From Rhizaria sp. SCN 62-66 (lineage: Eukaryota), in assembly GCA_001724265.1 (NCBI GenBank), contig MEDY01000027.1:1-64000 (forward strand): a stretch of DNA of 64,000 nucleotides, given 5' to 3'. The position numbers and the translations under genes were made by a program. The notes beneath the pieces are model-generated. The model was given only the letters and a program-made list of their open reading frames with translations, searched no databases and was not told the origin of the DNA. Positions 3,347-41,387 of the stretch are shown here, one piece after another (within the stretch, counting starts at the first letter, position 1; each line of letters begins with the position of its first letter).

Positions 3347-6300
3347 ATGGCAACATCGCGCACCCGCGCGTACACGGTACGTCGTCATATCTTTCTTTTC
3401 ATATGTCATTGTCTGTTCTTGTATCATCACTTACGTCAATCCACTATGACGCTCATGCTCTATCAACTTTATCACCGACCAACCAATCACCTGTTAGGAT
3501 CTCGTGTATGCTGCAGTGACGTCCTACACCACAATCCGCGGTGTGCTTTCACACCTGCGCGCGCAGTCGGCGCTGCCGGTGGAGCCTGGCTCTCTCGCCC
3601 CAGCCGAAGCCGCGGCTCTCGACACAGCCCTGCGCGCTGCCGCTGTTGCCGCGGTGCGCAACCTCGGCCACACCGAGGAGGGCGTTCTCTCCTGTGGCGC
3701 GCTTGGCATTGCTCCCGCGCTTGCGAGTGTGCTTCCTGATGGCACCGCGACCTCTTCGGCTGTTGTCCCCGTCGCCGCTGCTGCTACAACTGCATCCAAG
3801 TCGCCGAGTGAAGAGGCGCTTGTCAGCGCGTTTGACAGACTCTTCACGGCGGCTCGTGACCCCGCGCCGCCGGCTCGCACGCGCTGCGACGTTGTGATGT
3901 GCCTGCTGATTGGTCTCTCGCTCTTCTATACAGCCGCCGCGACCACACCAGCAGCAGCCAAGTCCGTCGGTATCGACATCACGGCGCCCATCGCGCTTAT
4001 CGAGCTCTGGCTCACGGTCACGCCCACTGCCGCCGTCGCCGCGCCTGCGCTCTCGCCCGCGCCCTCGGCCGGCATGAGCGACGCCAGCGGGCCCAGCGAC
4101 GGCAGCAGCGACGCCAGCGGCAGCGGCGCGGTGGAGGACGCGTCGTCGGTGTCGCGCGTATTCCACTCGGTCGAGCTCATCTGCTCGCTGCCGCAGCTCG
4201 AGCGCCTGCTCACCGTGCACATGCGCTGCCGCCTCGCGTTTCTGCGCACGTGCAACGGGCTCACGCGCGCGCTGTGCAAGCCCGAGCACGCACTGCTGTG
4301 TGGGCGCGTGCTGATGCTGCTCGCGCGCCTGCTGGGCGTCGACGAGCGCTCGGGTGTTAACGTATCGGGGCTCACGCACCGCGGCAACGCCACGCTCATT
4401 GCGCCCGCACCCGAGGCCCGCGCCGCGCTGGCCGCGCTGCCTGCGCACCCGCTGCTCACGCCGCAGTTCTACCTCGCGCTATGGTCGCTGCAGGCCTTCT
4501 TCGCGGACCCTGCGCTGCTTGCGGACCCGGCCGTCGCCGTCGCGCCGGAGGCCGCTGCGCCAGACACGGCGACCGACGCCGCCGACGACGACAAGGACTC
4601 CTCAGGCGGTGAAGCAGCCGACAACGAGGACGCTGATGCGAAGGCGCCGACGACTGATCCCAAGGCTGTTGACGATGGCACTGAGATGGTTGCGCGCATC
4701 CGCTCTCTGCTGACCTTCCCGGCGCTGCCGGCCACCACCGCGGCGTCCGCCGTCGCCGCGGCCGCGCGCCCGCCGCTGGCGTCGCCGTCATTGGCCTCTG
4801 CCGCGGCGTCGGTGCTGGGTGCGGCCGTGTCGTCGCACCTGGGCGCTCTGGCGGCGTCGCCGCTGTGGACCGGCCGCGACGGGCTCTCCGTCTTCGTGCG
4901 GCTGCTGTGCCGCGTGCTCAACGGCTTTGAGGCAGCGCTTGACGGACAGCTCGCGGGCGTGGGCAGCGCGGGCGTCACGACCGACGCCGCGCAGGCCGGC
5001 GCTGCGAAGGGCTCTGCCGCCGGAGGCAAGACATCTGCAACTGCCGCGGCCGCGGGTGCAGCTCGGGCCGCGAGTGTCGCGGGCGGAGCCGAGACTATCG
5101 GCGGCGAGTCGACCGTCCAATTCGCGTTCTTCCCCAAGTTCCTCACGGGCCCCGCGCTGCTGCCTCTGCACCTGCAGGACTCGGAGCTGCTGTCCTCGGT
5201 CATCGTGCAGGCGTTGATCCTGCTGCACCTGCTGCTCGCGCCCGCGCGCGTGCGCCCGCGCTCTCTGCAGGGCGTCTTTGCGGCCGTGCACGGCGCACCG
5301 CGCTTCCCGGAGCCCGCGGCGGTGGCGCCCGCGCCTATGGCGACTGCGACGGCGGCGACGGCGCTCGCGGTCTCCAGCACGATGCCCGCCGCGCAGCTGG
5401 CGCTCGTCACGGCGCTGCCGCAGCCGGGCCCCGCGCCCGCAGACGCACCCTCAGTACTGCGCCTGCTACTCGCGTGGGCGTACTTCGTGCTCGCGCGCGT
5501 GTCGCCGCGCCACCCCGCGCTGGCGCGCGACCTCGTCGCCGTGCTCGCGCGCTGCGAGCTGTCGTGGGTGCAGTGGAAGTCGCAGCAATGTCCCCCGCTC
5601 GTCGAGCCCGTGCGCGCAGTCCCTGTCTCCATCGCCACGGTGGCCGAGGGCGCTATGAGCGACGCCGGCGACGCCGCGGTGGCCGTCAACGTGAGCGCAA
5701 CGGACCTCGTCAACAACTGTGTCACGTTGTTGACGCAGCAGCTCTCGGCTGACTCGTCGCTGCTTGCGTCAGCGTTTTCCGGCGCTGCTACAGTCCCCGA
5801 GCCCGCAGCCTATGCGGCCAGCGCTGCTGTGGACTGGCCCAGCGCGCTGCCGGCGGCTCTGGCGCCGCCCGCAACCTCGTCGGAGGCCGCTGACTCCATT
5901 CACAGTCTGAATGTGGCGCTGGATCTGGCCGACGTACCTTTGGCCTTCAAGTCCACTGATATGCTGCCGTGGGGCTCCCCCACTCTTGCGCGCCTTGCGC
6001 TTACCACCGAACGCCGCCGCGCCGCTGCCCCCACCGCGCCCGGCCCCGCCACAGCAGCCGCGCTCACTGGCGGTCTCCGCGGCGCAGCCGCCGCTTTGAC
6101 TGCGACTGTTGAGCCCGCCACTGTGCTCGCGCCCTTCCTCGCCTTGTCTGACACCGCTGCTGCTTCCACGGCCGGTGGGTCGTCAAGTGGCGCTACTGCG
6201 GGTGCTGCGGAGGAGTTCGACCCCGCGGCCTTTGGTCTGGACCCCAACGACCCGATGTACGAGATGATGCTCGAATCGCTCGGCATCACGCCGCCCTCCG

Positions 6301-10356: not shown

Positions 10357-10869
10357 TCTCAAAGAGAGATACCACGATTGGCGTCAAGGCCGGCGATGGA
10401 ATCTGTTCAAACGGGTTCACAGCGCTAAGATTATGGCGTTTGCTATCAATACAAAGCCAATAGAATATAAAAAGAAGTATATGAGATGTTTAATATCCGT
10501 AATAAGCGTTGCAGGTATCCAGACTCGAAGTAGTGCACATACACGATATAAGACAACTTCAAAGTTAGTCTCCGGAGGGATGACTCAATCCTTTCGATGA
10601 GCTGGCACGCCAGTCTGGAACACAAGAAAGCAAATATCACCTCCGAAAATCCGTCATCCGATGCATAGCGACTGAAATGTGAATTCAATGTTGCGCATAT
10701 ATATTGTATCTTTATTACACTTGATCTATATCACTTCCTATGTCTCTGGACACAACTCACGTGCTTGCCCTGTCTCCGAACTTCCACGCACTCTCCACCA
10801 ACAGACACAATTCTGCACAGCCGGTCACGCACTGCAGCAATTCGCACCGCTGCTGATGTAGTCGGTGCG

Positions 10870-13293
10870 ATGCGCTCTTTTGTATTAACCACAGCACATG
10901 CTATTGGTCCACATGCTGCCCCCAGCGCGCACACCGTGCCGGCGCGGGCGTGCTCGTCTACGTCGTCCTCCTCTTCGTCGGCGGCGTCGTCCTCCAGCGC
11001 CCCGGCACTCAGCGTGCAGTGCCGCCACTCTGCGGCCCCTTGCACTCAGACCCGCGCGTCCTTGGTCGCGGCCCCCGCGAGCTTCAGCACCCTCGCGTCG
11101 CTGCCCTCGGCGGCGTCCGAGGCCGAGGCGGGCCTGCGGCCCGTGCGCGTCCGCTACGCGCCCTCCCCGACCGGCTCGCTGCACTTGGGCGGGCTGCGCA
11201 CAGCGCTGTACAACTATGTCTTCGCCAAGCGCTTTCCCGGCGGCAAGTGCATCCTGCGCATCGAGGACACGGACCAGACGCGGCTCGTCCCCGGCGCCGT
11301 GGAGCAGCTGCAGCGCGACCTCGCTTGGGCCGGGCTGCACTTCGACGAGGGCCCCGGTGCGTTGGGCGGCCCGCACGGGCCCTACGCGCAGTCGGAGCGG
11401 CTCCCGCTGTACGAGCGTGCGGCCGCGGAGCTTATGCGCGCGGGCCACGCGTACCGCTGCTTCTGCACGCCCGAGCGGCTCGAGACGGTGCGCGCGAACC
11501 AAATGAAGCGCGGCGCGGCGACGACGTACGACCGCCTCTGCGCTGGGCTCTCGCAGGACGAGTCGGACGCGCGCGCCGCCGCGGGGGACTCGTTTGTGGT
11601 GCGCATGAAGGTGCCCGACCGCGAGGCCGGCGTCACAGTGGTGCGCGACGAGGTCCGCGGCGAGGTGCGCTTCCTCAACAAGGTGATCGACGACCAGGTG
11701 TTGATGAAGTCTGACGGCTTCCCCACGTACCACCTGGCCAACATTGTGGACGACCACGACATGCGCATCACGCACGTTATCCGTGGCGAGGAGTGGCTAC
11801 CCAGCGCCGCCAAGCACGTGCTGCTGTACCAGATGTTCGGCTGGCCCGCGCCCGCCTTCGCGCATCTCCCGCTGCTGCTGCGGCCCGACGGGTCCAAGCT
11901 CTCCAAGCGCTACCGCGACTCGTCGCTCGACTACTACATGTCGCTGGGCTATCTCCGCGACGCCGTCGTCAACTTTGTCACCTTCCTCGGCTGGCACCCC
12001 GCCTCCGCCACTGCAGCCGCCTCCGCCGCGGAGACCGACACGACTGCTGCTGCCGCTGATGCCACCGATGCTGCTGGTCCTGCCCAGGCGCCGCTTGCGG
12101 CGGCCGCGGCCTCTGCGGCGGCGGGCGGCGCCGCGCTGAGCAAGACGGACATCGCCGCGCTGCGCGCCGCGCTCGGCGGCGACGGCGCTGCCGGTGGCAA
12201 AAAGAAGAAGGGCGCCGCTGCCTCCAGCAACGTCTCCGCTGCTCCTGTTGCTGCCGCAGCCGCTGCATCAGCCTCGACCGCCGTTGCTGTTGCTGCCGCG
12301 GGCGCGGGCTCTCTGTTCTCCGCGTCCGCGTCTGCGCAGGCGGAGGAGCTGAGCATCGCAGCGACGGTGCCGCTCTTCTCACTTGCGCAGGTTCAGCGCT
12401 CCGGCGCCACGGTCTCGCTCGACAAGCTCCAGTGGTTCCACAACCACTACTGGAAGAAGGCGCTGTCGTCGCCCGAGGGCGTGGCCGTGCTCTCCGCGGA
12501 CGCGCTGCCCTACGTCGCCGAGCAGCTCGACGCCTTCGCGGCCGCCGCGGCCGCCGCGGGGGGCGCGCCCGTCGCGCTGCCCGCCTCGCCTCACCAGCCC
12601 GTCGCCTCCGCCTCGGACTCTTCCGCTCCGGCCTCCTCTGAGGCCGCTGCTGCGCCTGCTGCTGTTGCGCCTGGGGCGGCGGCTGCACCGGTGTTCTTCT
12701 ACCCGGCGCTGACGCGGGACCCCCGCAGCGACGAGGCGGCACTGGCGCTGGCGCTCAAGACCACCCGTGACCACCCGTGCCTGCTGGCCGAGTTCCCCGC
12801 CGCGGCCTTCTTCGCGTGGGCGCGCCCGCACCTGGCCGACCCGCGCGCGCGCGCCTGCCGAGACAGCTTCTGGATCTCGGATGCCGTCGCCGCCGCCGCC
12901 GCGGTCGTCGCGGGCGCTGCGCCCGACGCCGCCGCTGCCTCTGCTTCTGCCTCTGCTGCTGCGCCTGCTGCGCGCGGGAAGAAGCGCGGCGGCGCGGGCG
13001 GCAAGGTCGTCGCGACGCGCGCGGTGCTTGCGGCGGCGCGCGCGCTCATCGCGAGCCTGCCCGAGGCCGTCTTCAGCGGCTTCGACGTCGAGCGCCTCGT
13101 CGGCGAGCTCAAGGCGCTGGCCGCCGCGCAGGGCGTGCCGCTCAAGGAGGTCTACCTGCCGCTGCGCTTCGCGCTCTCGGGCGGCCTCGCGGGGCCCGGC
13201 GTCGCGGACCAGCTCTGCGCTGTCGGGCAGGCCGAGGCGCTGGTGCGCGTACAGGCGGCCATCGATCTTCCCGACGAGGCGTCCGCGCAGTGA
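10870..13293 (+). CDS. EARS2: Bacterial-type (probably mitochondrial) glutamyl-tRNA synthetase with N-terminal presequence (~807 aa)
   Basis: VRVRYAPSPTGSLHLGGLRTALYNY (HIGH region), ILRIEDTDQTR, AYRCFCT, KSDGFPTYHLANIVDDHDMRITHVIRGEEW, KLSKR (KMSKS equivalent), YLPLRFALSG. Ser/Ala/Arg-rich leader from ATG 10870. Stop TGA. Confidence 0.95.
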   Translation: MRSFVLTTAHAIGPHAAPSAHTVPARACSSTSSSSSSAASSSSAPALSVQCRHSAAPCTQTRASLVAAPASFSTLASLPSAASEAEAGLRPVRVRYAPSPTGSLHLGGLRTALYNYVFAKRFPGGKCILRIEDTDQTRLVPGAVEQLQRDLAWAGLHFDEGPGALGGPHGPYAQSERLPLYERAAAELMRAGHAYRCFCTPERLETVRANQMKRGAATTYDRLCAGLSQDESDARAAAGDSFVVRMKVPDREAGVTVVRDEVRGEVRFLNKVIDDQVLMKSDGFPTYHLANIVDDHDMRITHVIRGEEWLPSAAKHVLLYQMFGWPAPAFAHLPLLLRPDGSKLSKRYRDSSLDYYMSLGYLRDAVVNFVTFLGWHPASATAAASAAETDTTAAAADATDAAGPAQAPLAAAAASAAAGGAALSKTDIAALRAALGGDGAAGGKKKKGAAASSNVSAAPVAAAAAASASTAVAVAAAGAGSLFSASASAQAEELSIAATVPLFSLAQVQRSGATVSLDKLQWFHNHYWKKALSSPEGVAVLSADALPYVAEQLDAFAAAAAAAGGAPVALPASPHQPVASASDSSAPASSEAAAAPAAVAPGAAAAPVFFYPALTRDPRSDEAALALALKTTRDHPCLLAEFPAAAFFAWARPHLADPRARACRDSFWISDAVAAAAAVVAGAAPDAAAASASASAAAPAARGKKRGGAGGKVVATRAVLAAARALIASLPEAVFSGFDVERLVGELKALAAAQGVPLKEVYLPLRFALSGGLAGPGVADQLCAVGQAEALVRVQAAIDLPDEASAQ

Positions 13294-14786
13294 GAACGCG
13301 CTGGGCGCTCGTTAAAACACATGTTAAGTTGGAAGTGTGGATGTATTTATTGCGTTGGCTGGCAGAAGATGCTCGTGAACGTATTTTTTGTGACAACAGA
13401 TTTGTGATGCATTGTCAAATGACAATAATAAAATGAAGCAAATGGAAGTGTGAGTGTATATTTATTACATAAAATGGGGTCCGGAACTACACTCGGGTGA
13501 GCGGGATAGGGAAGAAAAAGAAGAATGAACAGCAAAAGGGACTACTAGTACAGCGATTAACTCGAAACTACGGTTGATAAAGCAAGCGGTCACGAGGTCT
13601 GCACTGCGTATCACGGGGGCGATAGTTACATTTGCACAAGCACAAAACTCAAGCTCGAACAGAACGGCGTTGCACTTAACAGGGCGCGGCGCAGTGATGT
13701 TCTTGTAAGAAATCAAAAAGTGTACAATATAAAACAACAACGAAGACAGTCAGAAAATGAAAGATGAAAAACAAAACAGAAAAGGAAACACAAGAGCAGA
13801 TCAACAAAAAGGGTCCCTCCAAGTCAAGTAAGAAACCAGCGGAGATCGGGTCAGGGGCACTGATAAGAGACCCTCTGACAATGGCGTGACAACAGCAACG
13901 CAAGAATCAAAGACTACGAGTGACTAAAGAACCCTGAAATATGCTAAAGAAAAATGGATTCTGCAGTTAGTGTCGATGAACGGGGTTAAACTGAACTGGA
14001 CTGAACTGAACGGGGGAGTAACTTGGACGAAGCGAAGACAAATTAACGAGAAAAGTAGAGGGGGGACGAAACTACCAACATTCGGCAGAGACGCCACAAC
14101 GGGCGCGTCACAGCACGATACAGCAGAACACAGAAAAGTACAACACAGCGCACCAGATCGAGCACAGTGCAATACACAACTGCACGGACGCGCGATTGTC
14201 CCCCAAGGTCGGATGACTAGCCAAAAGGCTCTCAGTCCGCCAAACAGCGATGAGACAATACCAGCACGACTGTACATGCGAGAACAGTGTAATCATTGAG
14301 TGCATAAGCAGGAAGTGATACAGACGACCAAATCAGTGGCAGTATTGTACACAGAAAAAGAAGAGAGAGAACTGGGGCGGTTGGTGTGTACGTGTAATGC
14401 TGTACGGAGCTTAGAATTTGTAAGGAGCAAATAGATCTAGGCAATAAAACACATCAAATTGAACACAGCTAGTGCAGTGAGAGTTTTGGAACAATGTAAA
14501 ACACAACAAGATGGGGAAAAAGCAAAACAAAAAGTGTCAAAACGGCGCACTCGACAAAAACAAAAAATAAAAACCAAGACACAGAATCACACAATGAAAA
14601 ACAAAATTGATGAAAAGAAACCGAGAACAAAACAACGCGCTTTGTGCGTAGTTTTTGTCGTTGATTGATGTGCTTTTCATTCGACAACACGTTCGCTCAG
14701 TACAAAGGCCAACGCTCCAGTTGCAGGGAACGGTGCAGCGACAAGATGTGCTGCACCTATAATAGTGCTGCAAAGGCCCTTCTCCC

Positions 14787-17375
14787 TCACTGTTGGGCGA
14801 CGGGGCGGAAGTAGAGCGTGCACTTAAAGTCGTCGGGGAAGTGCTCGCATGCCTTGTCCTTGAGCGCGCCGTCGAGCTCGCTCTTGGTGATCTCGAGCTG
14901 GCGCGTGCGCGAGCCGGCCAGGAAGGCCGAGTGGAGCCAGAAGTGGAACATTTTCTCGTCGCGCAGCGTCGCGTTGTTGTAAAACGTCACCTTGAACTCG
15001 CCGGGCGCCTGGAACGAGCACGTGAGCTCACGCCGCATCTCAGGCGCCGCCCAGCGCACCAGCTTGCCGCCGGACTTGCGGTGGTCGTACAGCACTGCGC
15101 CCTGCATGTTGGTGACAATGAAGTAGGGCGTGCAGCCCTCCTGGCGGTCGAATCTAGCCGGCGGCTCGACTGCGATACCCGTCACGGCAACAGGTGCGCC
15201 GGAAAAGGGGAAGGCGGAAACGAGGTTCGCGTGGTAGTAGTGGCGCAGGAACTGGTCGAAGTAGTGCACAAAGCGCTGCTGCGACGGAATCGTCACGCCC
15301 TTGCGGTTGCTCGTGCGTTTATATCCGTAGTACTGCAGCGCTTCGGCCGCCGTGTTAAAGGCTTGCGTGAAAAGCAGCAGCGCGGAGACCATGAGCCCCG
15401 TGCGGCCCTTGCCGGCCTTGCAGTGCACGGCCACCACGTTCCTCGGGTCCTCGGCCATGAAGGTCGCGGCGTCGCGGCAGAACTGGTACAGCATCGACAG
15501 AGGGCACGGGTTGTGGTCGTCGAACGGGTACTGTGCGCACCGCTCGAAGTGGTCCGCCGTGTACGAGCGCTCCGAGCAGAGGTTGTAGACCTTGTAGTGG
15601 CCCGCGTGGTACTTGGACATGAAGTCCTGCACATACTTCATGCGGTTGCGGTAAGCCGCCTCGATGCCGTCGGACGGGAAGCCCATCGCGATGATCGAAG
15701 GCGTGATGTATGTCAGGTCCAGGTCAAAGCCGTCCTTCTGGTAGCGCAGCTTCTTCTTCGACACCAGCCGGCGCGCAATGTTGGCCATGGTCATGCGCGC
15801 CTTGCCGCCCTGCTCCTCGCCGTCAGATTCATCGCGTTCCGACAAAACGCTCGGCGGCTCGGGAGGCGCGTCCTCGTCGTCAGAGTCCGGCGGCGGCGGC
15901 GGCGGTGGAACGTCCCCGTCGTGGGCGCCTCCGTCGACGAACGACGCCGAGTTAGTGCTCGACACGGTGCCCGCCGAGTAGCCGTCGTCGTCGTCGTCGT
16001 CAACGTCGTCTTCGTAGCCGTCGTCGTCACGCCAGCCGGCCTCAAACGCGGGCGCGTTTGTGCGCACGCGGCCGCGGATCGTGTTGCAGTTGTAAGCGCC
16101 GCCGGGAACGTTGGAGCTGGCGGGCGACTGGGAGCCCGCGCCGCCAGCGGTGACCGGGGAGAAGACTGAGGTGAGGCGCGTCGTGCCCGCAGCGGGGGCG
16201 TCGCGTATGGTGGGACTGGAAATGGTCATCGGGGCCGCCGAAGGGGACGCCGCGTTGGAGATGGCAAAGGCCGCGGCCGAGAGGGCCTCGCGTGAGGCGC
16301 CCTTGTTCGAGTGCCAGGCGTCCCAGGCGGCGTCCTGGATGTCGAACTCGAGCGTACACACGAAGTCCTTGGGGAAGTGCTTACAGGACTTGTCCTTGAC
16401 GGCACCGTCGAGCGAGTCCTTGGTGAGCACAAGCACGGGCTCGGTGATCATCGACGTCTGGATCCACACAGAGAACATCTTGTCATCAGAGCCAAACTGG
16501 TCCCAATCCATGAACGTCAACTGCACCTCGCCGGAGATCTCGTAGTTAACGGAGCACACGTAGGGCACGCCGCCATCCCAGTGTTTGTGCGTGCTCTTGG
16601 CGCGCTTGTCAGTCCACGAGTTATAGAGCTCGACTGACTTGGAGCCCATCTTGCGGATCACGACGTAAGGGTCGCAGCCGCCGCCGGTGTCGAAGTCGGC
16701 GCGCGGCTCCAGCGTGAAGGCGCGCAGACGGATCTTACGGTCCACCGTCGGCAGCATGAGTCCGGGCCGCACGTAGCGCTGCAGGTACTCGGCGTAGTGC
16801 ACCACCCAACGCTGTTGCGAGGGGATCGTGACGCCCTTGGAGTTGGATGTGCGCATCATGCCGTAAAAGGCCAGCGCGCGCCACGCCGCGGCCTCGCCCT
16901 CGTAGCCCACGGTGGAGTCGTGGCCCAGGCGGCAGAGCAGCGCGGAGATCATGAGCCCCGTGCGGCCCTTGCCGGCCTTGCAGTGAACTGCGATGACGTT
17001 GCGCTCGTCGGCCGCCAGGAAGGCCGCAGCGTCGTTGCAGAAGTCGAGCACCATGCGGAACGGGCACGGATTGTGGTCGTCGAACGGGTAGCGAGCGCAC
17101 GCGCCCGGATCGAAGCGGTCCGACGGGTACGCGCGCTCCGAACACAGGTTGTAGATCTTGTAGTGCCGCGGGTGCTTGCGCGAGAAAAAGGTCTGCACGT
17201 GCATCATATCGTTGCGGTACGCCGCCTCCACGCCTTCCGCAGGGAAGCCCATGGCGATGATGCGCGACGTGATGTACGTCAGGTCCAGGTCGAAGCCGTC
17301 CTTCTGATAGCGGTGCTTCTTCTTCGAGACGAGCCCGCGGATGCCCTGCGTGGCCTTGCGCAGGAATTTCGGCAT
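14787..17375 (-). CDS. PTEN: Tandem double PTEN (phosphatase+C2)x2 portion, 862 aa; minimal product if TAG is a true stop
   Basis: Both copies keep the PTEN signature HCKAGKGRTG, YNLCSER, YPFDDHNP and DxKMFxxW/LDGAxKDK C2 motifs. Confidence 0.93.
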   Translation of the reverse strand: MPKFLRKATQGIRGLVSKKKHRYQKDGFDLDLTYITSRIIAMGFPAEGVEAAYRNDMMHVQTFFSRKHPRHYKIYNLCSERAYPSDRFDPGACARYPFDDHNPCPFRMVLDFCNDAAAFLAADERNVIAVHCKAGKGRTGLMISALLCRLGHDSTVGYEGEAAAWRALAFYGMMRTSNSKGVTIPSQQRWVVHYAEYLQRYVRPGLMLPTVDRKIRLRAFTLEPRADFDTGGGCDPYVVIRKMGSKSVELYNSWTDKRAKSTHKHWDGGVPYVCSVNYEISGEVQLTFMDWDQFGSDDKMFSVWIQTSMITEPVLVLTKDSLDGAVKDKSCKHFPKDFVCTLEFDIQDAAWDAWHSNKGASREALSAAAFAISNAASPSAAPMTISSPTIRDAPAAGTTRLTSVFSPVTAGGAGSQSPASSNVPGGAYNCNTIRGRVRTNAPAFEAGWRDDDGYEDDVDDDDDDGYSAGTVSSTNSASFVDGGAHDGDVPPPPPPPDSDDEDAPPEPPSVLSERDESDGEEQGGKARMTMANIARRLVSKKKLRYQKDGFDLDLTYITPSIIAMGFPSDGIEAAYRNRMKYVQDFMSKYHAGHYKVYNLCSERSYTADHFERCAQYPFDDHNPCPLSMLYQFCRDAATFMAEDPRNVVAVHCKAGKGRTGLMVSALLLFTQAFNTAAEALQYYGYKRTSNRKGVTIPSQQRFVHYFDQFLRHYYHANLVSAFPFSGAPVAVTGIAVEPPARFDRQEGCTPYFIVTNMQGAVLYDHRKSGGKLVRWAAPEMRRELTCSFQAPGEFKVTFYNNATLRDEKMFHFWLHSAFLAGSRTRQLEITKSELDGALKDKACEHFPDDFKCTLYFRPVAQQ

Positions 17376-19353
17376 CGTGCTGCTGCGGCCGGCGTCCTCG
17401 TCTTCGTCGTCCTAACTGTAGTCGTCGTCCTCCTCGTCGAACTCGTCGGTGTCGACCGCTCTACCGGCCCGCTGCAGCGACGAAGACGACGCCGCAGCCC
17501 CACCCGCCAGACTCTGCGCGCCCGTGGGGGGACCGTACTGCGCGGCGGCTGCGGCGGCTGACGGCGTGGGTGGCGCGAGCGGCGCGGGCACGGGGCGACG
17601 CGCAGGCACCGCGGGCACCGCGGCGGCAGGCGCACGCGACTGGGGCAGCACGTCGTCGGCGTCGTCAGCACCGAAGGGCGGCGGCGGCGGGGGCTCCTCG
17701 GCGTCCGCGCCGGACGCCGGCGGCGGCGGGGGCACGGAGGCGGGCTCGGGCGGGTACGCCGCGGGCTCCGGTGCCGAAAAAAACTGCGAGCGCGCCGCAG
17801 TGGACGCGGTGGCGGCGGTAGCAGCGGAGGAGTTGTTCGAGGTCGACTCGCGGCTCGACGGGGGTGACGGCGAGGGCTACGGCGTCGCGCCCCCGCTGCC
17901 CGAGGGCGAGCGGAAGAAGACCGAGGTGGTGCGCGCGGGCGGTACCAGCGCATTGGGCGTCATCGGCACGACGAACGAGGCGCGCGAGGAGCCCGACATC
18001 GGCGACAGGGGGTTGTGGTAGCCGTCGCCCTTGCCGGTTCCGTACGACGCCGCGGGCTGCACCGAGAACGGCGCGAATGTGTCCGAGAGCTGGTGCGACG
18101 CGCTGGGCGTGCGGCGTGCGGTTTCTGCGTTGTGGCTGGTGAGGGGCGAGACGTTGTAGAAGGACTCGGCGCGGTGCGTGTTGGCGAGCAGTGTATTGTT
18201 GAGCAGCACTCTACCCTCGGTCGGCGGCGGCACGCCCGTGGTGGCGAGCGCGTTGCTGTAGGCCTGGCGCGTGGCGTCGATGCGCGCGCGCAGCCCAGTG
18301 AGCGAGGCGTAGTTGCCCTGCAGCACGACGGGGCGCGAGCTGGTGCGGGAGATGATCTCGAGGCGCGGCTGTGGGTCGGGCGTCACCGTCACCGACTCGA
18401 TCTCGTCGACCAGAATCGCGCCAGACGCGAAACCCAACTCGCGGTTCTTTATGGGGTCGTAGTAGAGCAGCACGTCCGGGTGCAGCACGAAGAAGCGCTC
18501 CTGCCACAGGGGCACCAGCTTGCTGCTCTTGGGCGAAAGCTTCTTGAAGACCCCCGAGCACACTTCGATGCGGTCGGCCGCGCGCAGCGACGTCGACGGC
18601 GGCGGCAGCTCCGTCGAAGTCTCGCGCTGACGGATGCGGTGTCGCGCCTCGAGCGCAATCGCGGTAATGTTGTCGAGGAACTTGCCGCGGTAGAGCTCGG
18701 GCGCCTTGTCAAGCGCGGCGCCGCGGGCAGAGTTAGTCTGCACCAGCGGCTGCAGCGCCGCGACCCAGGTGTCGAGCGCGCCGGACACGGATGTCGAGAA
18801 TTCAAATGATGTGTTGTCGCTGGAGCCGGAGGCGGTAATTTTGAAAGAGGAGCTGCTGCGTTCGACGGCCGAGATTGTGTCAATGGGGATGAGACACTCC
18901 GGCTTTGGGTCATTCTCCTTCTCGAAGATCGCCAAGACGTCCTCGTACAGAGCAACGAACTTTTTCGTCGACACGAAGACAACCTTCTTCAAGGATAGCG
19001 TCCCGCTATGAGACGGCACATTCTATGGGCATATCAGAAACAAAAGTCAGGCAAAAGGAAATTAGCGTCACCGAAGAAGACTTGGAGGGTTTGGGACTCT
19101 CACGTGGACCATGCAAAAAGTCGCACCGCACAGGGATATTATGGCTGTCAGTGTGTCGGAGCAATGACATATCGTTACAAAGAATATAAACACATCATAG
19201 AAATCGCTCGGCACATCCATCAGATAATACTCAACACTCAGAAAAGAAGATAAAACGCAGTCTGGTCGGTGAATGGTGGGGGGCGCAGAAGATAGTTTCA
19301 GCGAAGAATAGAAGAGCAACGGGGGGTCGTACCTCGGAGAGAAAGGCAAACAT
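14787..19353 (-). CDS. PH-PH-PTEN-PTEN protein (~1418 codons if the in-frame TAGs at 17877-17879 and 17412-17414 are read as sense; exons 19353-19333, 19022-14787)
   Basis: Track ORFs 17877-19019, 17412-17735 and 14787-17375 share one frame and are separated only by single TAG codons. PH-like motifs HSGTLSLKK...DTWVAALQ and CSGVFKKLS..WQERFFVL..LLYY. Two PTEN units, each LVSKKKxRYQKDGFDLDLTYIT...HCKAGKGRTG...GVTIPSQQR plus C2. First exon MFAFLSE inferred from GTACGA(19332)...CCCATAG(19023). Stop TGA. Confidence 0.7.
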
Positions 19354-19775: not shown

Positions 19776-21275
19776 TTACTCAAGGAGCGCGGCGTACTCC
19801 TGGTTGGAGACGGAGTGCTCGGACTTGACGACGTCGGCGACGGGGAGCCCGGTCAGGACACTGGGCTTGCCGTCTGGCATGACGCCGACGAGGAACTTGG
19901 TCTGCGCCACCACGAAGCCCTTCTTCTCCGACAGCACGGGGAACGGCTCCAGCGCGCCGGTGCGCTCGCACTCAAGCACGCCGAGGCGCGCAAACTTGGG
20001 GTTGCAGGCCGTGAGCGCGAAGGGGAAGTGGGGGAACGAGTGGTCGACCTCGTTCTTGAGCAGGCGCGCAGAGTTGACCTTGAGCGACGGACGCAGGTTG
20101 GACTTCTTGTACACGGTGGTGCGCTCCTCAGAGCGGCGGGGGCGACCCTCACCGGTGGACATAACGATGTCAAGCGCATAGACCTCGCCCGCGGCGAAGG
20201 TGCACTCCTTGCCCTTGTGCTCGGCGTCCTCCTTGTTGAGGATCGTCTTCTCGCCGTCGATGAGGTTGCGCTCGATGTTGTGCGAGAGCACGCCCAGCAC
20301 GGGGGTCACCTTGTAGTCGGCAGCAATCGCGGCGATGGCGGCGGTGATCACGGTGTTGGTGGCACCCGCGGTGAGCAGCTTGGCGGCGACGCGCGCGGCC
20401 TTGTCGGCGGCGAGCACGGCGTTGGCAGCGGGGCCAGTCACGTCCTTGGCCTCGGTCTGCGCGAAGAAGGTGTGGGCGACGACGGCGAGGTAGCCGTCGA
20501 TATGGACACCAAGGTCGATCTTGACGAGGTCATTCTCGGCGATCTGCACGGTGTGCTCGGTGAAGGGCGAGACGTGGCCAACGAGGCCGTTGAGCGAGCA
20601 GCACACGGGGAAGCCGATGCCCTTTGTCATCTTCTCGTCATCAGTGAAGTGCGCCTTGACGGACTCATTGATGAAGGCGTCGGCCTTGGAAGTCACGTCG
20701 TACACGCGGGTGCCAGGCACGCAGAGGGCCATAGCCATCTTGAGGGTCGCCTGGGCGATCTCAGCGGCTATAAAGTGATGTGCAGCAAGATGAGCAAACA
20801 GTCGTAAGGGAGAAAATGACAGGTCGTGAGAAGAAAATTCGGTCGTGGCTGCCGATAACTAGCTTGTCGCAATACATGACAACGTGCGGATTGACATGAC
20901 ATAAAGGAATAGTTAATGATATGACATACCAATGGTGTACTTCTTGACGGCATCCTCACTGTGGAGGTCCTCAACAGGCTAGGCGAATATAGGGATGTCA
21001 AAAAGAAGATATAGAGAGATCAATGTGAGGCATCACGCGCGTTTCATCACAGATCCTGTAATACCAAGAGACATAGTAGTACGTCAAAAGAGTGGCATGC
21101 GAAAAGAACACAAGACCAATGCGCTGGAGATGCCTGGAAAATGGGTCTGCGGATCAGTAGTCAGAAGATAGCTTGTCTCTTTCAAGACGTGCTAGAGAGT
21201 CCTAGCAGCAGGCATACAAGAAGTGAAGATATGGAGTTGATAGCGTACCTTAGCAGCGACCTTAGTCTCAGACAT
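19776..21275 (-). CDS. PA2G4: Proliferation-associated protein 2G4/Ebp1, MetAP-like fold (355 aa; exons 21275-21249, 20978-20930, 20767-19776)
   Basis: KKYTIAAEIA, KGIGFPVCCSLN, DLVKIDLGVHIDGY, GVLSH, GEVYALDIVMSTGEG, FPF, ARLGVLEC, VVAQTKF. Introns GTACGC...CCTAG and GTATGT...TATAG restore the frame. Stop TAA. Confidence 0.95.
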
Positions 21276-26323: not shown

Positions 26324-29300
26324 ATGGACCAGTCATACCACTCTCCTCGTAAGAGTGGTGGGCACCATGGTGGCAACAAGAAGGACGGTAGCAAGGGGGA
26401 CTTGCATGCGGACACTAACCAAGCTGCGCCGCGGGCTCCATCACCGCAGCCCAACAGCCAGTCCCCGTCGCCCCGTCTGTCTGCAGCGACGCTGACGCCT
26501 CCGCTGCTGCCACTGCCGTCGCCGCTGCCCGCGCCTACCGTGGCCGACAGTTCGCTGCTCACATACGCGCAGGCCGCGGGACTCATGCGCCGCGGCATGC
26601 CGGCCGCGCCGCTGCCGCGCCCGCTTGCGCGCCCCGACGACGCCTCGCTCTACGGCCCGCCGCTGCCGCCGGGTTCGTCGCCATCAAAGTCCCCCTCCGC
26701 CTCGGCCGCGTCGGCCGCGGCGGCCGTGGCGGCCGCCTCGCGCTCGTCGTCGCCGCGCGTGGTTCCCGCGCACCCACTCAAGGGCGGCGGCGCCTCCCCG
26801 ACCCGCTCGCCTGCGCACTCGCCCGCGCCCTCACCCCGGTCCGGCAACTCGTCGAACTCCAACAGCGCAGCTGCCAAGGATGCTGCCTCCAACTCGAACG
26901 CAAGCAGTGGCGCTGGCTCTAACTCGAACACAGCCGCAGCCGTTGTCGCTGTCGCTAATGGTATCCCGGCTGCCGCTGCTGCCCCTGCTGCTGCCGCTGC
27001 TGCTGCTGTTGCAACACCAGTTGCGCACGCGCCTGCGACTGCGCCTGTGACCCCCGAGCCTGCGGCTGCCGCTTCCTCGTCTGCGCCGGCGTCTTCCGCC
27101 TTTGCCGCCACCAACGCTCCTGCGGCGACCGCGGCCACGTCCGCGTCCGCATCCGCGTCCACCTCCAGTGAGACTGCGGCGTCGACGTGCGCCCCGTGCG
27201 CGCCATGCTCGCAGCAGTCGCTGCAGGACCCCGCGGTGATGGCGGCTGCGGTCGCACAGGTTATCGCCGCCGCGGCCACGGTGCTGCCTTCGCCCGTGCA
27301 AACGGAGCTCCAAGCCCACATCCACAAGCTCCGCGCATACGTCGCAGACGCCGCCGCGGTGGCAGACGCCGCGGTTGCCGACCCGAGCAACAGCACGGAC
27401 TCGATCGCCACGGCCGCGGGCGACTCCGGGGCGAACGCAGCCTCCGCAAACATGGAGGCTGGCCTGAAGTCAGAAGCCGGCGCTGCCGTGGTGCTCGATA
27501 CCACTGCTGCCGACGGCGACAACGACGACGACGCCGCGGGCGCAGGCGCGGGCGAGCTCAACACCAGCGCAACAACTGGCGACGGCGCTGCCGCCGGTTT
27601 GGCAGCAGGCGCCGGCGCCGGCAGTGACGGCAAGCCGATGTCCTGGCTGAAGCGGCACAACATCAAGAAGCTCTCGGGCCCCAAGGTGCGCGTGGCAACG
27701 TTCAACGTCGAGAATCTGGTACTACGTTACAAATTCCGCTCCGGTCTGGCGTCGTGCTCTGCGACGTTCACGCGCAACGACACTGCGTACTCGGTGCACG
27801 ACCTGGACCAGAAGAAGCTCACGGCGGCAGTGATCCACGACTGCAACGCCGACGTACTCGCGCTCATGGAAGTCGAGAACCTCACCACGATCGACTACTT
27901 CAACAAGGCCTTCCTGCAGCCGCTGGGCTACCGCTACTCGGCGCTCATCGAGGCCCACGACCCGCGCTTCATCAACGTCGCTGTGCTCTCGCGCTTTCCC
28001 ATCCTGGCCGTGCGCTCGCACAAGGACGACCTGGACGCGCTGGGCAACTATCTGTTGACGCGTTCCTGTCTCGAGGTCGACATCGACATCCACGGCACGC
28101 CGTTTGTGCTGTACGCGAACCACTTCCGCTCGATGCGCGGTTCTGACGACGGGCGCAAGGAGAGCGCGCGGCGGCGCGAGGAGCAGGCCGCCAAGGTGCG
28201 CGAGATTGTCGCCGCACGCTGGGAGTGCGTCGGCTTCAACGGCAACTTCATCGTGTGTGGCGACCTCAACGACAAGAACGACTCGTCGTCGTCCATTACT
28301 GCACTGACGCGACACCCCAGTCTGGAGAACATCGTCGAGCGGCTGCCGAAGCATTTGCAGTGGACGCACCATTTCAACGGCGACGACACGTACTCGCAGC
28401 TGGATTACATGCTTGTCGCACGCACTCTTGCGCAGCTACCCACCAACATCGCCGCCAAGCCCGTCATTGTGCGCGCCGGCCTGCCCTACCGCGCGTCGAA
28501 GTACCGCGGGCCCAGGCACAAGGTACGCTAACTGCACATCGAAATGCTTGCTTTATTTTGTTCTTGCTACTTTAGTAATGAATTGTGTTGCTCACTACTA
28601 GTATTTTTTCAATATTTCATGTATTTCCTTTGTCCTCTGACAGACTGTCGGCATGGACCGCCCCAAGGCGTCCGATCACTGTCCGATCTACTTCGACCTG
28701 CAGCTCTTCGTGCCGCTGACGCACCCGTTCAGCTACCCGTTCCCGCGGCCCATGGCGCGTCCCTACGTCGACTACCGGCCCTGGAACGTCGCCGTGCCCG
28801 CGCCGCCCGTGTGGCACTCGGCGGCCAGCTCGCCCGCGCTCGTCCCTCTCAACGGGCCGCCCGCGCACAGCGAGACTGGCACCGGCGGCGGCAAAGCCGG
28901 CTCGCGCACCCCCAGCGGCTCGCCCTACATGACCGGCGCACAGAGCGGGGTCAACGTTGGCGCGCTCAAATTCGACCTTAACCCCAGCCACCCGGGCTAC
29001 GCCAGCACCGCGGCCAACGGCAACGGCGGCGGCTCCGACGCCGGCTCCAACGCGGGCTCTCAGCCCGGGTCGGCGACCTTCCGCGCCGCTACGTGGGCCG
29101 ACCTCAACCGCTTTGCCGCCGCCGAGGACCGCGCCTCGAATGACGGACTCGGGTACGTTACTCTCTAACACTTTTCAATCAACAATTTCTCGAGACGGTC
29201 GATTTTATTTCGTCATTTTGCACATCTTGCAAGTTCTATCTTACAACCTCTTCTTTGCTTCGCGCTTTTTTTTTTTACTGCAGTATCGTGGGCCGCATCA

Positions 29301-32300
29301 TCAACGAGCTCAACGTGTCGCCGCCGCTGCGCGCGGACGGGACGCTGCCGCCGCGGCCCGACGGCACGCCGCAGGTCGACTCAGTCTGCTCGAGCGGGCC
29401 CGCACGCTTCACCGGCACGCCGCCCGACTCGCCGCAGCTACCGCCGGAGGCCTTGACCAGCAACAGTAACGCCAACTACGGCCCCGGCACCGGCAGCGGC
29501 TCAAGCGGCAGCGCGCACACGCTCAACGTGCCGCAGCCGCTGACGCTGCCCGCGGGTCGCAGTTTGCTGCGCGACCAGCCGCTGCAGTCGCCGTCGGCGC
29601 TGCTCTCGCCGGTCTCCGAGTACCCGTCCTCGTCCGCGCAGACGTCCACGGCCGACGCCGACGCCGACGCCGTGGCTTTCGTCGCGCTCGACAACGCCCA
29701 CGCGCTTTCGCAGGCCCAGGCGCAGGCCTCGGCGTCGGCGGCGCAGCAGAGACTGTCAGTGCTAGACATCTTGGCCTCGAACTCGAGCTCCGCCGCGGGC
29801 TCGCGCGCGCCCACCCCCTACCTCACGCCGAACCTCTCGCCGCATATTATCCCGCGCGCGCTGCCTGCCGCCGCCAGCAGCAACGGCAATGGCGGCGGCA
29901 GCGTATCGTCGTGGTCCAAGATGTCCGCCTCCGCGGCGCCGTTCCAGTCGCGGATGTCCCCGCGCCAGGACGCGCGCTCGCTCACCGGCACGCCCCCGCT
30001 GCCGCTGCTCGACGCCGATTCCGCCACCCCGGCCGTGGCCTCTGCTGCGGCCGCCGCGCCCGCGCGGACGTCGACGCTCAGCAGCGTGGTCGGCTCGGCC
30101 AACGTGCCTTGGGGGCTCTCGCTGCCCGCTGCAGACGCCACCGCGCGCTCCGTCGCCGCGGCCGCCGCGGCCGCGGTCGGCACCGCGCGCGCCAGCGCCC
30201 GCGCCGCCTCGACCTCCGGCGCCAACGGCAATGGCAGTGGCAGTGGCAGTGTGAATGGAGCGGCGAGCGCGGGCGCGAGCGCGAACGGCGATAGCGCGCT
30301 GGGTCGCATGCTGCCCGTGGCCGCGGCGGCGGCGGTGCAGGCCGCGCTATCGGCCGTCCATACGGCCGAGCGCGCAGTGCAGCGCCTGCCGCGCACCGCC
30401 GCCGCCGTCGCCGCCACTGTGCAGGCCGCCAAGGCCGCCCGCGCCGCTGCAGCCGCCACCGGCGACGTGACGCCGCTGGGCAGTCCGGCCGACGGCGCCA
30501 ACGCGCCGGGCGCGTCGCCGTCGGCGGCCGCGGCGTCGCCGTCGCCGTCGCTGGCGCCCGCCCCCGTCACCACGCCGATCTCCGCGAGCGACGCTGTCGT
30601 CCCCGTCGAGGGCGGCGACACCCCCGCCGCTGCCGCTGCCGCTGCCGCCGCGACTGCGACTGCTGCTGCTGCCCCGGTTGCGACGACTGTCAGCGGGAAC
30701 CTGCGCGAGCTGGACTCGGCGGTGCACGCGCTGCAGCACGCGCTCTACGTGCTTTTCTGCCTGCGCGAGGGCGTCGACCCGGGCCATGAGGCCACCAACG
30801 CCGCAGCCGCTGTCGCCGCCGTCGCCGCGGCCGGGAGCCGCGCCGCCGCGCCGTCAAGCGCGACGCTGCACGCGCCCACGGGCTCGTCCTCCTCCGCGGG
30901 CTTATCCGGCCTGCGGTCGGTGACGCCGCTGCGCGTGCCCGTGGCGATGACAGGCCCGCTGCTGCGACAGCCGTCGCCGTCGATGTTTCCCTTGGTCGCC
31001 GCAATGGACCTGTCGGATCTGCCCCCGCTCGTCGCGCCCTCGCCCAGCGACGCGGGGCTCACCGTCCCCTCGGGCGCCGGCACTGCGGGCTCGCGAGCGG
31101 CGTCCTTCGCCGCCGCCGCCGCCATGGGATGGTCAGGCTCGACCGGCACCTTCGACTCGGGCGCCGTGTCGCTGCCCGGCACGCCCTATGGCGCCACCGC
31201 CGGACCCTCCTCCAACAACAACTTTGTCAACCTGAGCAGTAGCATCAACTACCATAGCATCAGCAACAGCAGCAGCAACAACAACAACGACAACCGCGCC
31301 AGCAGCAGCGGCCACAGACGCACGAGGTTTGCGTCGCGCGCAGGCGCCGAGGGCAGCGACGCCGCGAGGCTGGCCTCGCTGACGGCGCCCGTGCCCGGCG
31401 CCGATGCCGCCGCCGTGGTGGCCGCCGCGTCGGCCGCGGCCGCAGCCTCGCTGCCCGTGTTCCTCACCGCGGGCAGCCAGGACGTCGCGCGCTACGGCAG
31501 CTCGCTCACACTTTCCCCTGCCGGCTCCATGACGCGCCGCCTCACGCCGCACGGCCGGCCGTCCAACTCGAACGCCAACCCGCACGCGCTGCCGCTGCTC
31601 CAGTCCAACGCCTTCGCGCCCCACAGCGGCAGCGCGCGGCCCGCCGTTCCGGGCGGGCTCGCCGCACCGGACGCCGTGGCGCGGCTCGTGCGCGACGGGG
31701 CCGGCGCCGCGGGCGACGACGTCGACGACAGCGACGACAACGGCGTCAGCGCCGACGGCGACGACGACGACGACGAGTCGGGCTCCCTCGCGGCCTCGCG
31801 CTGGTCAGGCTCCTCAGGCGCCTCCTCGGGCGGCGGTGGCTCTGCGCCCGGCGAGACCAGTGACTCGGTCCTCACCGAAGTCCGCGCTACCACCAGTGCC
31901 AGTCCTAACGTCGACGCCAGTGCTGGTGCCGGTGCGAGTACCAGTGCGAGCGCGACTATCAGTGCCGACAACAAGGATAGCAAGGACGTGCGTGCGCAGG
32001 CGCGCTCCAAGGAAACGGCCGCGATTCCCGAGCCTGGCAGCGTGACGACGACGCCGGTGCGCGCGCGCGGGCACTCGCCGGCAGCCAGTCCGCCGCGCGG
32101 CCCGCAGAGCTCGGACACGCTCGCGGCGCCCGCGGCGGCGGACTTCGCGGCCGCGCAGGCGGGTTTCGGCGCCACCCTGTCGCAGATGCAGGCGTTGGAG
32201 CGGCGCCGCACGCCCGCAGGCAGCCCCGTGCTGTCACCGCGGCGCCCCACGCTATCGCTCACCACCGCGCCCAACCTCGTCTCCGCGGCCGCTGCGGGTT

Positions 32301-35300: not shown

Positions 35301-35461
35301 AGGTCGTCCGCGCCAACGGGATGCCCGTGGCGCTGGTGACGCGGCTGCCCGGCGAGTCGCGCAAGCAGCGGCGCGAGCGCGTCCGCGAGACCCGCCGCGC
35401 GCAAGCTGGCGCGGGCGGGCGCAACGGGGGCCGCAGCGCGGCGCAGTCAGACGACGACGAC

Positions 35462-35496
<35 letters not shown>

Positions 35497-35797
35497 CTAC
35501 GACGGTGATGCCGGCGGCGATGGCAACGACGATGACGGCGATACCAATGCTGGTACGAAGTCGAAGCAGAAGCAGCGCGGCTCCCGAGTCCAAGAGCGCG
35601 ACAGCGAACGTGAGGGCGAGAGCGACGAGGGCCCGCGCGAAAAGCGCGGCTCGCGGCGCGCTCATGGCGACGCGGTGGCCATAGGAGCTGACGTTGAGAG
35701 CATGCGCTCGCCGCCAGCCCCCCGCAAGCACAGCGCATTCGGCCTGCTCAGCGGGCTTAACAGCTCCGAGGATGAAAATGAAGACGAACACGAGTAA
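26324..35797 (+). CDS. Very large low-complexity protein with one endonuclease/exonuclease/phosphatase (EEP, DNase I-like) domain (~3073 aa; exons 26324-28522, 28644-29152, 29284-35797)
   Basis: EEP motifs VATFNVENL, DVLALMEVEN, NVAVLSR, ANHFRS, CGDLND, SQLDYML and, after intron GTACGC(28523)...GACAG(28643), ASDHCPI. A second intron GTACGT(29153)...TGCAG(29283) joins the 2,170-codon low-complexity exon in frame. Stop TAA. Confidence 0.85.
35450..35497 (+). repeat. Coding trinucleotide repeat (GAC)4(GAT)11GAC encoding poly-Asp16
   Basis: Read directly from the sequence; in frame in the last exon of the EEP gene. Confidence 0.95.
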
Positions 35798-40784: not shown

Positions 40785-41387
40785 GAGTTCGACTCGGAAG
40801 ACCTCGCTGAGGAAACCAACGTCGGACGAGTGAGATAAAGTGAGACATACAAAGGTCTATAGTTCATATTATTACAATACAATAAATTCATCTTGTATAC
40901 AGAAAAGAATATATCTTAGCGAAAACATTAAGATCGCTCTTGACAGATTTTTTATGGAGAGAATTAAGAAAACAATCTGGTGTCTTGGGAGGCGCGAAAG
41001 AGCTGGCTCGAGGGCAAAGTCAAGCCGCAGAAGCAACACTTTGTCAATCTTTGAAAGACTATACTGCATTATTCTGATCGTCAAAGTGGCTGCAAGCGCT
41101 TTACCTATGTTGATAGGAGGGGTTAGTCGATAATTCCTTGAACGCATGTCTAAATTTTTGATGTTTGCACGCGAATGCAAGTGTGTTTTGAAGAAGACAA
41201 ACCAGAAACGACTTGTGGTTTCGTCTATTTTCTCATGGTATACTGCATCACAATCGCAATATATGGCTAAGTTAAAAGATTATGATTGTCACATGATGTA
41301 TTTCTATAGACCACTTCATTTTTGTTGCTTAAAATCTTATTTATCCCTGGTTTTGGTTCCTATCTCCACCCGCCACAATCTGCAGAT

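Follow-up and report, generated by a model that had tools for sequence, protein, structure and literature searches.

Organization of the PH-PH/PTEN-PTEN locus

We analysed a 64,000-nt stretch of DNA from Rhizaria sp. SCN 62-66 (assembly GCA_001724265.1, contig MEDY01000027.1, positions 1 to 64,000, forward strand), here called the window, and in it a minus-strand locus that encodes two PH domains, a long low-complexity linker and two PTEN-type phosphatase units. Translation of 14787-19100 shows a single frame that runs from 19022 to a TGA at 14789-14787, and its internal stops are exactly the two TAG codons that the original prediction, made from the sequence alone, had reported in an otherwise continuous frame: TAG1 (17879-17877) and TAG2 (17414-17412). 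The parts of the locus are listed below. X3, X4, X5 and X7 are sequencing runs, and P0004 is a 1603-residue relative from an NCBI genome assembly, encoded on a contig of 83,716 bases. The read evidence consists of contigs from these runs at low depth, and such contigs are uninformative on transcript ends, strand and minor forms.

19333..19353, minus strand: exon 1 of the PH-PH gene, an ATG plus six codons (MFAFLSE), read from the sequence; a complementary DNA (cDNA) contig of X5 joins 19333 to 19022, and the spliced frame was checked
19023..19332, minus strand: spliceosomal intron of 310 bases, GT..AG, phase 0; the X5 joint skips 310 bases (CT..AC on the plus strand), with zero X5 depth inside
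17880..19022, minus strand: exon 2, the pair of PH domains followed by the first part of the low-complexity linker (Pfam; BLASTP, residues 12-223 against P0004 residues 52-248)
17877..17879, minus strand: TAG1, polymorphic with CAG (Gln), next base C; TAG in the window, X3 and a second contig (L001), and plus-strand 17879 A>G in X4, X5 and X7
17415..17876, minus strand: linker of 154 codons, Pro/Ala/Ser-rich and acidic, 77% guanine plus cytosine (G+C), no Pfam family, fast-changing
17412..17414, minus strand: TAG2 within the acidic run, next base G; in all populations seen and in cDNA, bridged by contigs of X3, X4, X5 and X7
17376..17411, minus strand: 12 codons between TAG2 and the following ATG, read from the sequence, the rest of the acidic run and then AGRSST
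17373..17375, minus strand: ATG at the natural N-terminus of the PTEN unit, A at -3, 17 residues ahead of the conserved SKKK..Y.KDGFDLDL motif
16329..17342, minus strand: first PTEN unit, a phosphatase with the HCKAGKGRTG loop plus a PTEN C2 domain (Pfam; 60% identity to P0004 residues 804-1138)
14802..15803, minus strand: second PTEN unit, the same HCKAGKGRTG loop plus C2 (Pfam; 58% identity to P0004 residues 1262-1600)
14787..14789, minus strand: TGA, the true frame end, followed by AT-rich sequence (46% G+C over 200 bases)

Pfam assigns 17880-19019 to PH in two stretches (E 3.8e-12) and 14790-17375 to two PTEN phosphatase + PTEN_C2 units, with PTEN_C2 in two stretches (E 1.9e-38) and DSP-type phosphatase families in two places. 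The HCKAGKGRTG loop, of the Cys-x5-Arg type and which we take to be a PTEN signature, is present in both units, each time with a C2 domain after it. The 310-base 5' intron was first predicted from the sequence and then confirmed by the spliced X5 contig; its G+C content is 46% (19023-19331). If TAG1 terminates, exons 1 and 2 together give a product of 388 residues. Because gene callers split the locus into a 371-residue protein (P0126) and an 862-residue protein whose start is taken at ATG 17375 (P0002), databases may misdescribe it.

The 154 codons between the two stops had been described as GC-rich and coding-like, and this holds: at 77% overall, G+C by codon position is 0.75/0.72/0.84, highest at the third position of the frame. 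No Pfam family matched these 154 codons. Translation likewise confirms that the acidic run passes unbroken across TAG2. The claim that no AT-rich spacer separates the halves also agrees with the composition of the window. The 200 bases 3' of each of the 12 other gene ends have 35-47% G+C, and spacers of this kind are absent after TAG1, where G+C is about 80%, and after TAG2. Upstream of most starts that have an ATG near the beginning of the open reading frame (ORF), G+C is just 0.35-0.56, and it is 72% in the 200 bases before ATG 17375.

Beyond the PTEN-PTEN stop lies a 1.5-kb AT-rich stretch (13300-14787). A 1592-base cDNA contig (X5 record 17) covers 14300-15425 and 466 bases further left; it represents either a 3' untranslated region of PTEN-PTEN of about 950 bases or another transcript.

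The TAG codons in the DNA and cDNA runs

The stretch is present in public bioreactor, wastewater, activated-sludge and fuel-cell runs from eight studies. Run X5 is genuine cDNA, with zero depth in the intron and in the intergenic stretch and with the spliced joint present. In X4 the intron and the intergenic stretch are covered as well, so that this run behaves as DNA, and X7, although labelled polyA RNA, covers the intron unspliced and was not counted as RNA proof. The DNA run X3 carries both TAGs with no alternative letter, and a 1681-base contig from another collection (L001) is 100% identical to the window and includes TAG1. In X4, X5 and X7, TAG1 is CAG (Gln), the outcome of a plus-strand 17879 A>G difference. 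Since X4, which carries the CAG form, is DNA-like, TAG1/CAG is an allelic difference rather than a product of editing. The TAG form is common, being present in the window, X3, L001 and the seven contigs of P0126. A CAG to TAG origin had been proposed for the codon, and the CAG allele in three runs fits it. CAG to TAG, a C-to-T change, is the commonest nonsense route.

TAG2 is bridged unchanged in four runs (X3 record 6, X4 record 14, X5 record 19 and X7 record 29), no other letter occurs at 17412-17414, and the spliced cDNA run X5 retains it. Reads with CAG or GAG at the two sites had been named as one result that would refute the original prediction. TAG1 is CAG in X4, X5 and X7 and TAG in X3 and L001, and TAG2 is TAG in all four runs. 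Loose contig ends at 17413 and 17418 in X4 and X7, and replaced letters from 17439 to 17395, were not used and may stem from unrelated acidic runs. A hole in cover at about 17508-17825 occurs in X4, X5 and X7; as the DNA-like X4 has it too, it is uninformative on transcript ends.

Three of the alternatives raised with the original prediction fall away on these data. An assembly error is contradicted by TAG1 in X3 and L001 and by the agreement of X3, X4, X5 and X7 at TAG2. RNA editing is rejected on the CAG form in DNA-like X4 and on TAG2 kept in the spliced cDNA. As for an intron that removes both TAGs, a script found 164 in-frame GT/GC..AG pairs that could do so on paper, for example 17945 GTACCG .. 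17412 TTAG (534 bases), and the obvious pair from GT 17880 to AG 17412 (469 bases) is out of frame. Unspliced X5 contigs span the site at either end (record 20 the upstream one, record 19 the downstream one), and the 77% G+C of the inter-TAG stretch, against 46% in the proven intron, also counts against an intron; the possibility is rejected for the bulk RNA.

A relative with all four domains in one chain

A search with the read-through translation of the locus (P0001) matched the window's own P0002, the relative P0004 and further chains that join PH and PTEN (P0005, P0010-P0012 and P0014); P0011 comes from a transcript that its source labels complete. In P0004, which is a predicted gene model, PH-PH, linker, PTEN and PTEN are collinear in one chain, with BLASTP identities to the window of 27% for PH-PH, 60% for the first PTEN unit and 58% for the second. 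Its linker is long and Ser/Pro-rich and ends in an acidic run about 15 residues ahead of the first PTEN unit, like that of the window. The four domains thus stand in the same order in both, behind a Pro/Ser-rich linker with an acidic end, and the difference is that the linker of the gene model is stop-free whereas that of the window holds two TAGs. Because P0004 is collinear, with the acidic run before its first PTEN unit, the fused form appears to be ancestral and TAG2 appears to lie inside a conserved feature of the linker. The linker that holds the two TAGs does not align with P0004, and neither TAG stands at an alignable conserved position. That the halves were formerly one gene, as the original alternative of a gene fission implied, is supported by this collinear relative and by the PH + PTEN chains P0010-P0012 and P0014, and in the window both halves are open and matched by Pfam.

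PTEN-PTEN proteins without PH occur elsewhere and measure 818-904 aa (P0008, P0009, P0013 and P0016), and a stand-alone multi-PTEN protein (P0003) begins 8 residues ahead of the SKKK..Y.KDGFDLDL motif. The search of representative sequences with PH-PH gave 14 matches among 1.84 billion representatives; two of them (P0127 and P0129) look orthologous to the PH-PH protein, and both end in or before the linker. A near-length search with the PH-PH part found only the window's own protein, the metagenome scan with P0001 found nothing, the scan with the PH-PH alignment found L001 only, and the genome contig scan for further DNA of the organism found nothing.

P0127, the best PH-PH relative, ends in apparent intron sequence. 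It and P0141, the best relative of the M24 protein encoded in the window, are each recorded on a 15,993-base metagenome contig, and the gene order M24/PH-PH is probably conserved in a related organism.

Constraint on PTEN-PTEN behind TAG2

We compared the window with the X5 contigs, part by part. There are 2 differences in 2436 bases of PTEN-PTEN, none in 912 bases of PH-PH, 3 in 249 bases of the linker (17449, 17810 and 17879, of which two change a residue and the third is TAG/CAG) and 3 in 487 bases of the 3' flank. Set against linker plus flank (6 of 736), PTEN-PTEN (2 of 2436) is depleted in differences (Fisher p 0.003). Because both allele lineages carry TAG2, the differences postdate it.

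These counts bear on the possibility that, under the standard code, PTEN-PTEN is dead, a very recent pseudogene remnant behind TAG2 and too young to have decayed. Two nonsense codons in one gene are the classic look of decay, and, as the populations diverge by far less than 1%, not much decay should have built up so far. At the rate of linker plus flank, however, a dead PTEN-PTEN should show about 20 differences postdating TAG2 where 2 are seen, and it has 862 codons without a frameshift or stop, both catalytic loops intact and a third-position G+C of 0.89. In this small sample the pattern of differences speaks against a pseudogene remnant and for translation of PTEN-PTEN, and we regard a dead remnant as very improbable.

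TAG usage in the window

The original prediction had counted two TAGs among roughly 18,000 codons, in one gene, and the recount agrees: in the 16 ORF pieces modelled, TAG occurs twice in 18,096 codons, both times in the PH-PTEN linker and thus in 1 of 15 genes; it is absent from the remaining ~17,560 codons. The Gln codons number 368 for CAG and 81 for CAA, and the comparable T/C pair TTG:CTG stands at 140:627, from which about 80 TAGs would be expected for a working Gln codon (Poisson P about 1e-32). TAG is seven times rarer than the rarest sense codon (ATA, 15). For two TAGs spread evenly, the chance that both fall in one 155-codon stretch is about 0.01. Relaxed codon choice in the linker was considered and rejected: because the linker holds a single codon (AGA) of the 13 next-rarest types, with no enrichment of other rare codons, loose choice fails to explain the two TAGs.

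With 2 TAGs against about 80 expected, and both in one linker, a settled UAG=Gln code is excluded. Known UAG-only codes look different. Passages of PMC5304391 report 204 UAG codons in 126 genes for Iotanema spirale (UAG=Gln) and 384 in 71 genes for the rhizarian exLh (UAG=Leu), many of them at conserved positions. In phyllopharyngean ciliates with UAG recoded, 78-91% of genes contain UAG, and it accounts for 18-32% of Gln codons (passages of PMC11687900); cases in which UAG alone was reassigned include Hartmannula sinica and Trochilia petrani (Gln) and three TARA phyllopharyngean ciliates (Leu). The window resembles such codes in that TAA and TGA end its genes and that one in-frame TAG alternates with CAG; it differs in having two TAGs in 18,096 codons, in one gene and at unalignable positions.

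A code change at a very early stage would be harder to see. UAG might be turning into a sense codon genome-wide, most likely for Gln, through a suppressor tRNA or an altered eRF1, with TAG no longer used at gene ends and only beginning to return within genes by CAG-to-TAG changes; the locus would then still encode one PH-PH-PTEN-PTEN protein of 1417 residues. Several features of the locus fit this. The alternation of TAG1 with CAG between populations would be silent, and two high-frequency "nonsense" alleles in a conserved gene would be free of charge. Across the TAGs the reading frame, the G+C signal at the third position (0.84) and the acidic run are all maintained, the spacer between the halves is absent, the cDNA is continuous over TAG2, PTEN-PTEN is constrained behind TAG2 (2/2436 against 6/736), and the relative P0004 has the fused form. 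UAG-only reassignments have precedent in the lineages reported in the cited passages of PMC5304391 and PMC11687900. The 12 other complete genes of the window end in TAA (6) or TGA (6), and none in TAG; at 10-30% TAG stops, the range of gene ends that passages of PMC11687900 give for standard-code ciliates, the chance of this is 0.28-0.014, so that the lack of TAG ends is suggestive of a code change and no more.

The counts tell against it. Two TAGs in 18,096 codons and 1 of 15 genes compare with 1.6-5.4 in-frame UAGs per gene in the passages of PMC5304391 and with 78-91% of genes in those of PMC11687900, and about 80 would be expected; to fit, a code change would have to be scarcely older than the diversity within the species. 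In addition, both TAGs sit in the same 155-codon stretch, which is not rich in other rare codons, and neither is at an alignable conserved position. The tRNA gene search in the window found none, and Rfam gave no match. Nascent sense decoding best explains the missing spacer, the continuous RNA, the harmless common alleles and the lack of TAG ends, and it needs a coincidence of place. The proposal that UAG is decoded as sense, with which the original prediction led, is thus not upheld by the codon counts, and in its nascent form we consider it rather unlikely, although it comes second among the readings. If it were true, a genetic-code change would have been caught at its onset in a new eukaryotic lineage (uncultured, probably flagellated, GC-rich and living in wastewater reactors), the first reassignment seen in progress, at a codon frequency 100 times below any described UAG-recoded lineage, and the order of TAG stop loss, suppressor tRNA gain and codon reappearance would become testable.

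Sequence context of the TAG codons and readthrough

Sense decoding could also be confined to the locus. Under the standard code, near-cognate tRNAs might read through UAG here, with PH-PH as the main product and a full-length protein as a minor isoform. The transcript is apparently continuous, the downstream ORF is in frame, intact and constrained, and TAG2 is kept in all populations. UAG followed by C is a weak termination context and UAG followed by G a strong one, so the base after TAG1 favours readthrough and that after TAG2 opposes it. Domain-adding readthrough is known from the retroviral gag-pol UAG with its pseudoknot, the tobamovirus UAG-CARYYA and Drosophila kelch, and the locus resembles these programmed cases in having a whole-domain ORF in frame behind a UAG on what is seemingly one transcript.

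The stimulatory signals of such cases were not found. No known stimulatory hexamer follows either TAG (UAG CCC UCG and UAG GAC GAC), and RNA folding of the 80 and 120 bases that follow each TAG gives nothing beyond what shuffled sequences give (z 0.11, 1.11, 0.17 and 0.81). Conservation gives a divided picture: TAG2 occurs in all four runs and the ORF behind it is constrained, whereas TAG1 is polymorphic and P0004 is without a stop here. Two stops in one lineage are a further difference from the programmed systems. A second stop upstream would compound the loss of full-length protein, and in spite of this TAG1 is a common allele. We therefore hold readthrough at this locus to be improbable.

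A possible incipient gene fission under the standard code

The reading we favour, with a probability of roughly 0.4, is that the standard code applies, that nonsense mutations arose in an unconstrained linker, and that the gene is at an incipient stage of fission into a PH-PH gene and a PTEN-PTEN gene. The ancestor would have been a single gene of PH-PH, a long disordered linker, PTEN and PTEN, a form that would persist in the relative. A point mutation would then have created TAG2 in the acidic run of the linker, where it would now be present in every sampled population. A later CAG to TAG mutation 155 codons upstream, in what had become a useless tail, would have given TAG1, which would still be segregating. 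With TAG read as a stop, the PH-PH product would have 388 residues, or about 543 in strains with CAG, and a separate 862-residue tandem PTEN lipid phosphatase would begin at ATG 17375. Fission would be at its very beginning, with the spacer, the promoter region and the 3' end between the halves yet to evolve. Ribosomes could gain access to ATG 17375 through an internal transcript start in the linker or by reinitiation after TAG2.

We infer that TAG acts as a stop here and that ribosomes start PTEN-PTEN at its own ATG, a separate protein being suggested because PTEN-PTEN is intact, transcribed and still constrained. Several observations are consistent with this. Both TAGs fall within the only change-tolerant part of the gene (linker 3/249, against 2/2436 in PTEN-PTEN and 0/912 in PH-PH), and no reading other than fission accounts for the clustering of the sole two TAGs among 18,096 codons in one dispensable stretch. 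The kept frame needs no special mechanism, because point nonsense mutations preserve it. The ATG at 17375, 12 codons after TAG2 and 36 bases behind the preceding ORF, is at the position where stand-alone PTEN proteins start and has A at -3. The 862-residue product would match the protist tandem PTEN proteins P0008, P0009, P0013 and P0016 (Chrysochromulina tobinii phosphatase and tensin-like protein), which have 818-904 residues and two PTEN + C2 units; identity is 43-47%, and those are free-standing genes, whereas the unit in the window stands 36 bases behind another ORF without a spacer.

A number of points weigh against incipient fission. Before ATG 17375 the sequence has 72% G+C and is not AT-rich as at most starts, and no 3' end or promoter region is visible between the halves. 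X5 record 19 is unbroken from the first PTEN unit over ATG 17375 and TAG2 as far as 17543, its depth resembles that of the contigs over PH and PTEN, and this continuous contig fits one long mRNA. On such an mRNA, six ATGs and a long ORF precede ATG 17375, so neither leaky scanning, which the six upstream ATGs make unlikely, nor ordinary reinitiation is expected. A split between the membrane-targeting PH part and the phosphatase would not be expected to be neutral, and still every population carries TAG2. The absence of TAG from the 12 other gene ends has to be put down to chance, and the difference counts rest on few sites in low-depth contigs.

Every reading contains one unusual step, and we rank incipient fission first, followed by nascent sense decoding, readthrough and a dead remnant. 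Recent fission with PTEN starting at ATG 17375 had been listed as one alternative in the original prediction; it now stands as at least as likely as sense decoding. If fission is the true explanation, the locus would be a clean natural snapshot of a multidomain signalling gene becoming two: one nonsense mutation in a disordered linker would be enough, and the downstream half would find its start codon in place. Constraint would still act on both the membrane-targeting and the catalytic half, and an intergenic spacer would not yet have formed. It would raise the question of the route by which the downstream half is translated.

Other genes of the window

An in-frame TAG stands directly before five long ORFs (at 3495-3497, 10666-10668, 20859-20861, 40857-40859 and 19023-19025), which are THOC1-like, GluRS-like, M24/PA2G4-like, WDHD1-like and PH-PH, respectively. 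In four of them the first ATG lies 24-133 codons in, and close to the beginning of the PH-PH ORF there is no usable ATG. The TAG at 19023-19025 is the end of the proven PH-PH 5' intron, and a similar arrangement, a short first exon and then an intron ending in TAG, is probable for the other four ORFs. The GluRS-like ORF (10669-13293, plus strand) encodes a class-I aminoacyl-tRNA synthetase of the Glu/Gln type, in which the anticodon-binding domain is bacterial in type and the N-terminus carries a long extension. Its interest here lies only in the question of Gln decoding, and no evidence connects it with UAG. The M24/PA2G4-like protein shares 56% identity with the metagenome protein P0141 and only 40-42% with its best named matches, which come from animals, Capsaspora and haptophytes; neither the homologue search with this protein nor an Atlas search turned up a close named relative of the organism.

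An ORF of 175 codons (28641-29168, plus strand), rich in G+C at the third position, reaches into the beginning of a 2,217-codon ORF that lies in a different frame (29144-35797, plus strand). The long ORF has no Pfam match and its first ATG at codon 259; the two are probably one gene with an intron. From 43227 to 64000 on the plus strand, a frame stays open for more than 6,924 codons, free of stops and of any obvious intron, and runs past the window end. It matches Ig-like domains of the HYDIN/ASH/CFAP65 type, and its third-position G+C is 0.62, against 0.79-0.92 in the other genes. The frame looks like a giant HYDIN-like axonemal protein, and the organism therefore probably has a flagellum or cilia.

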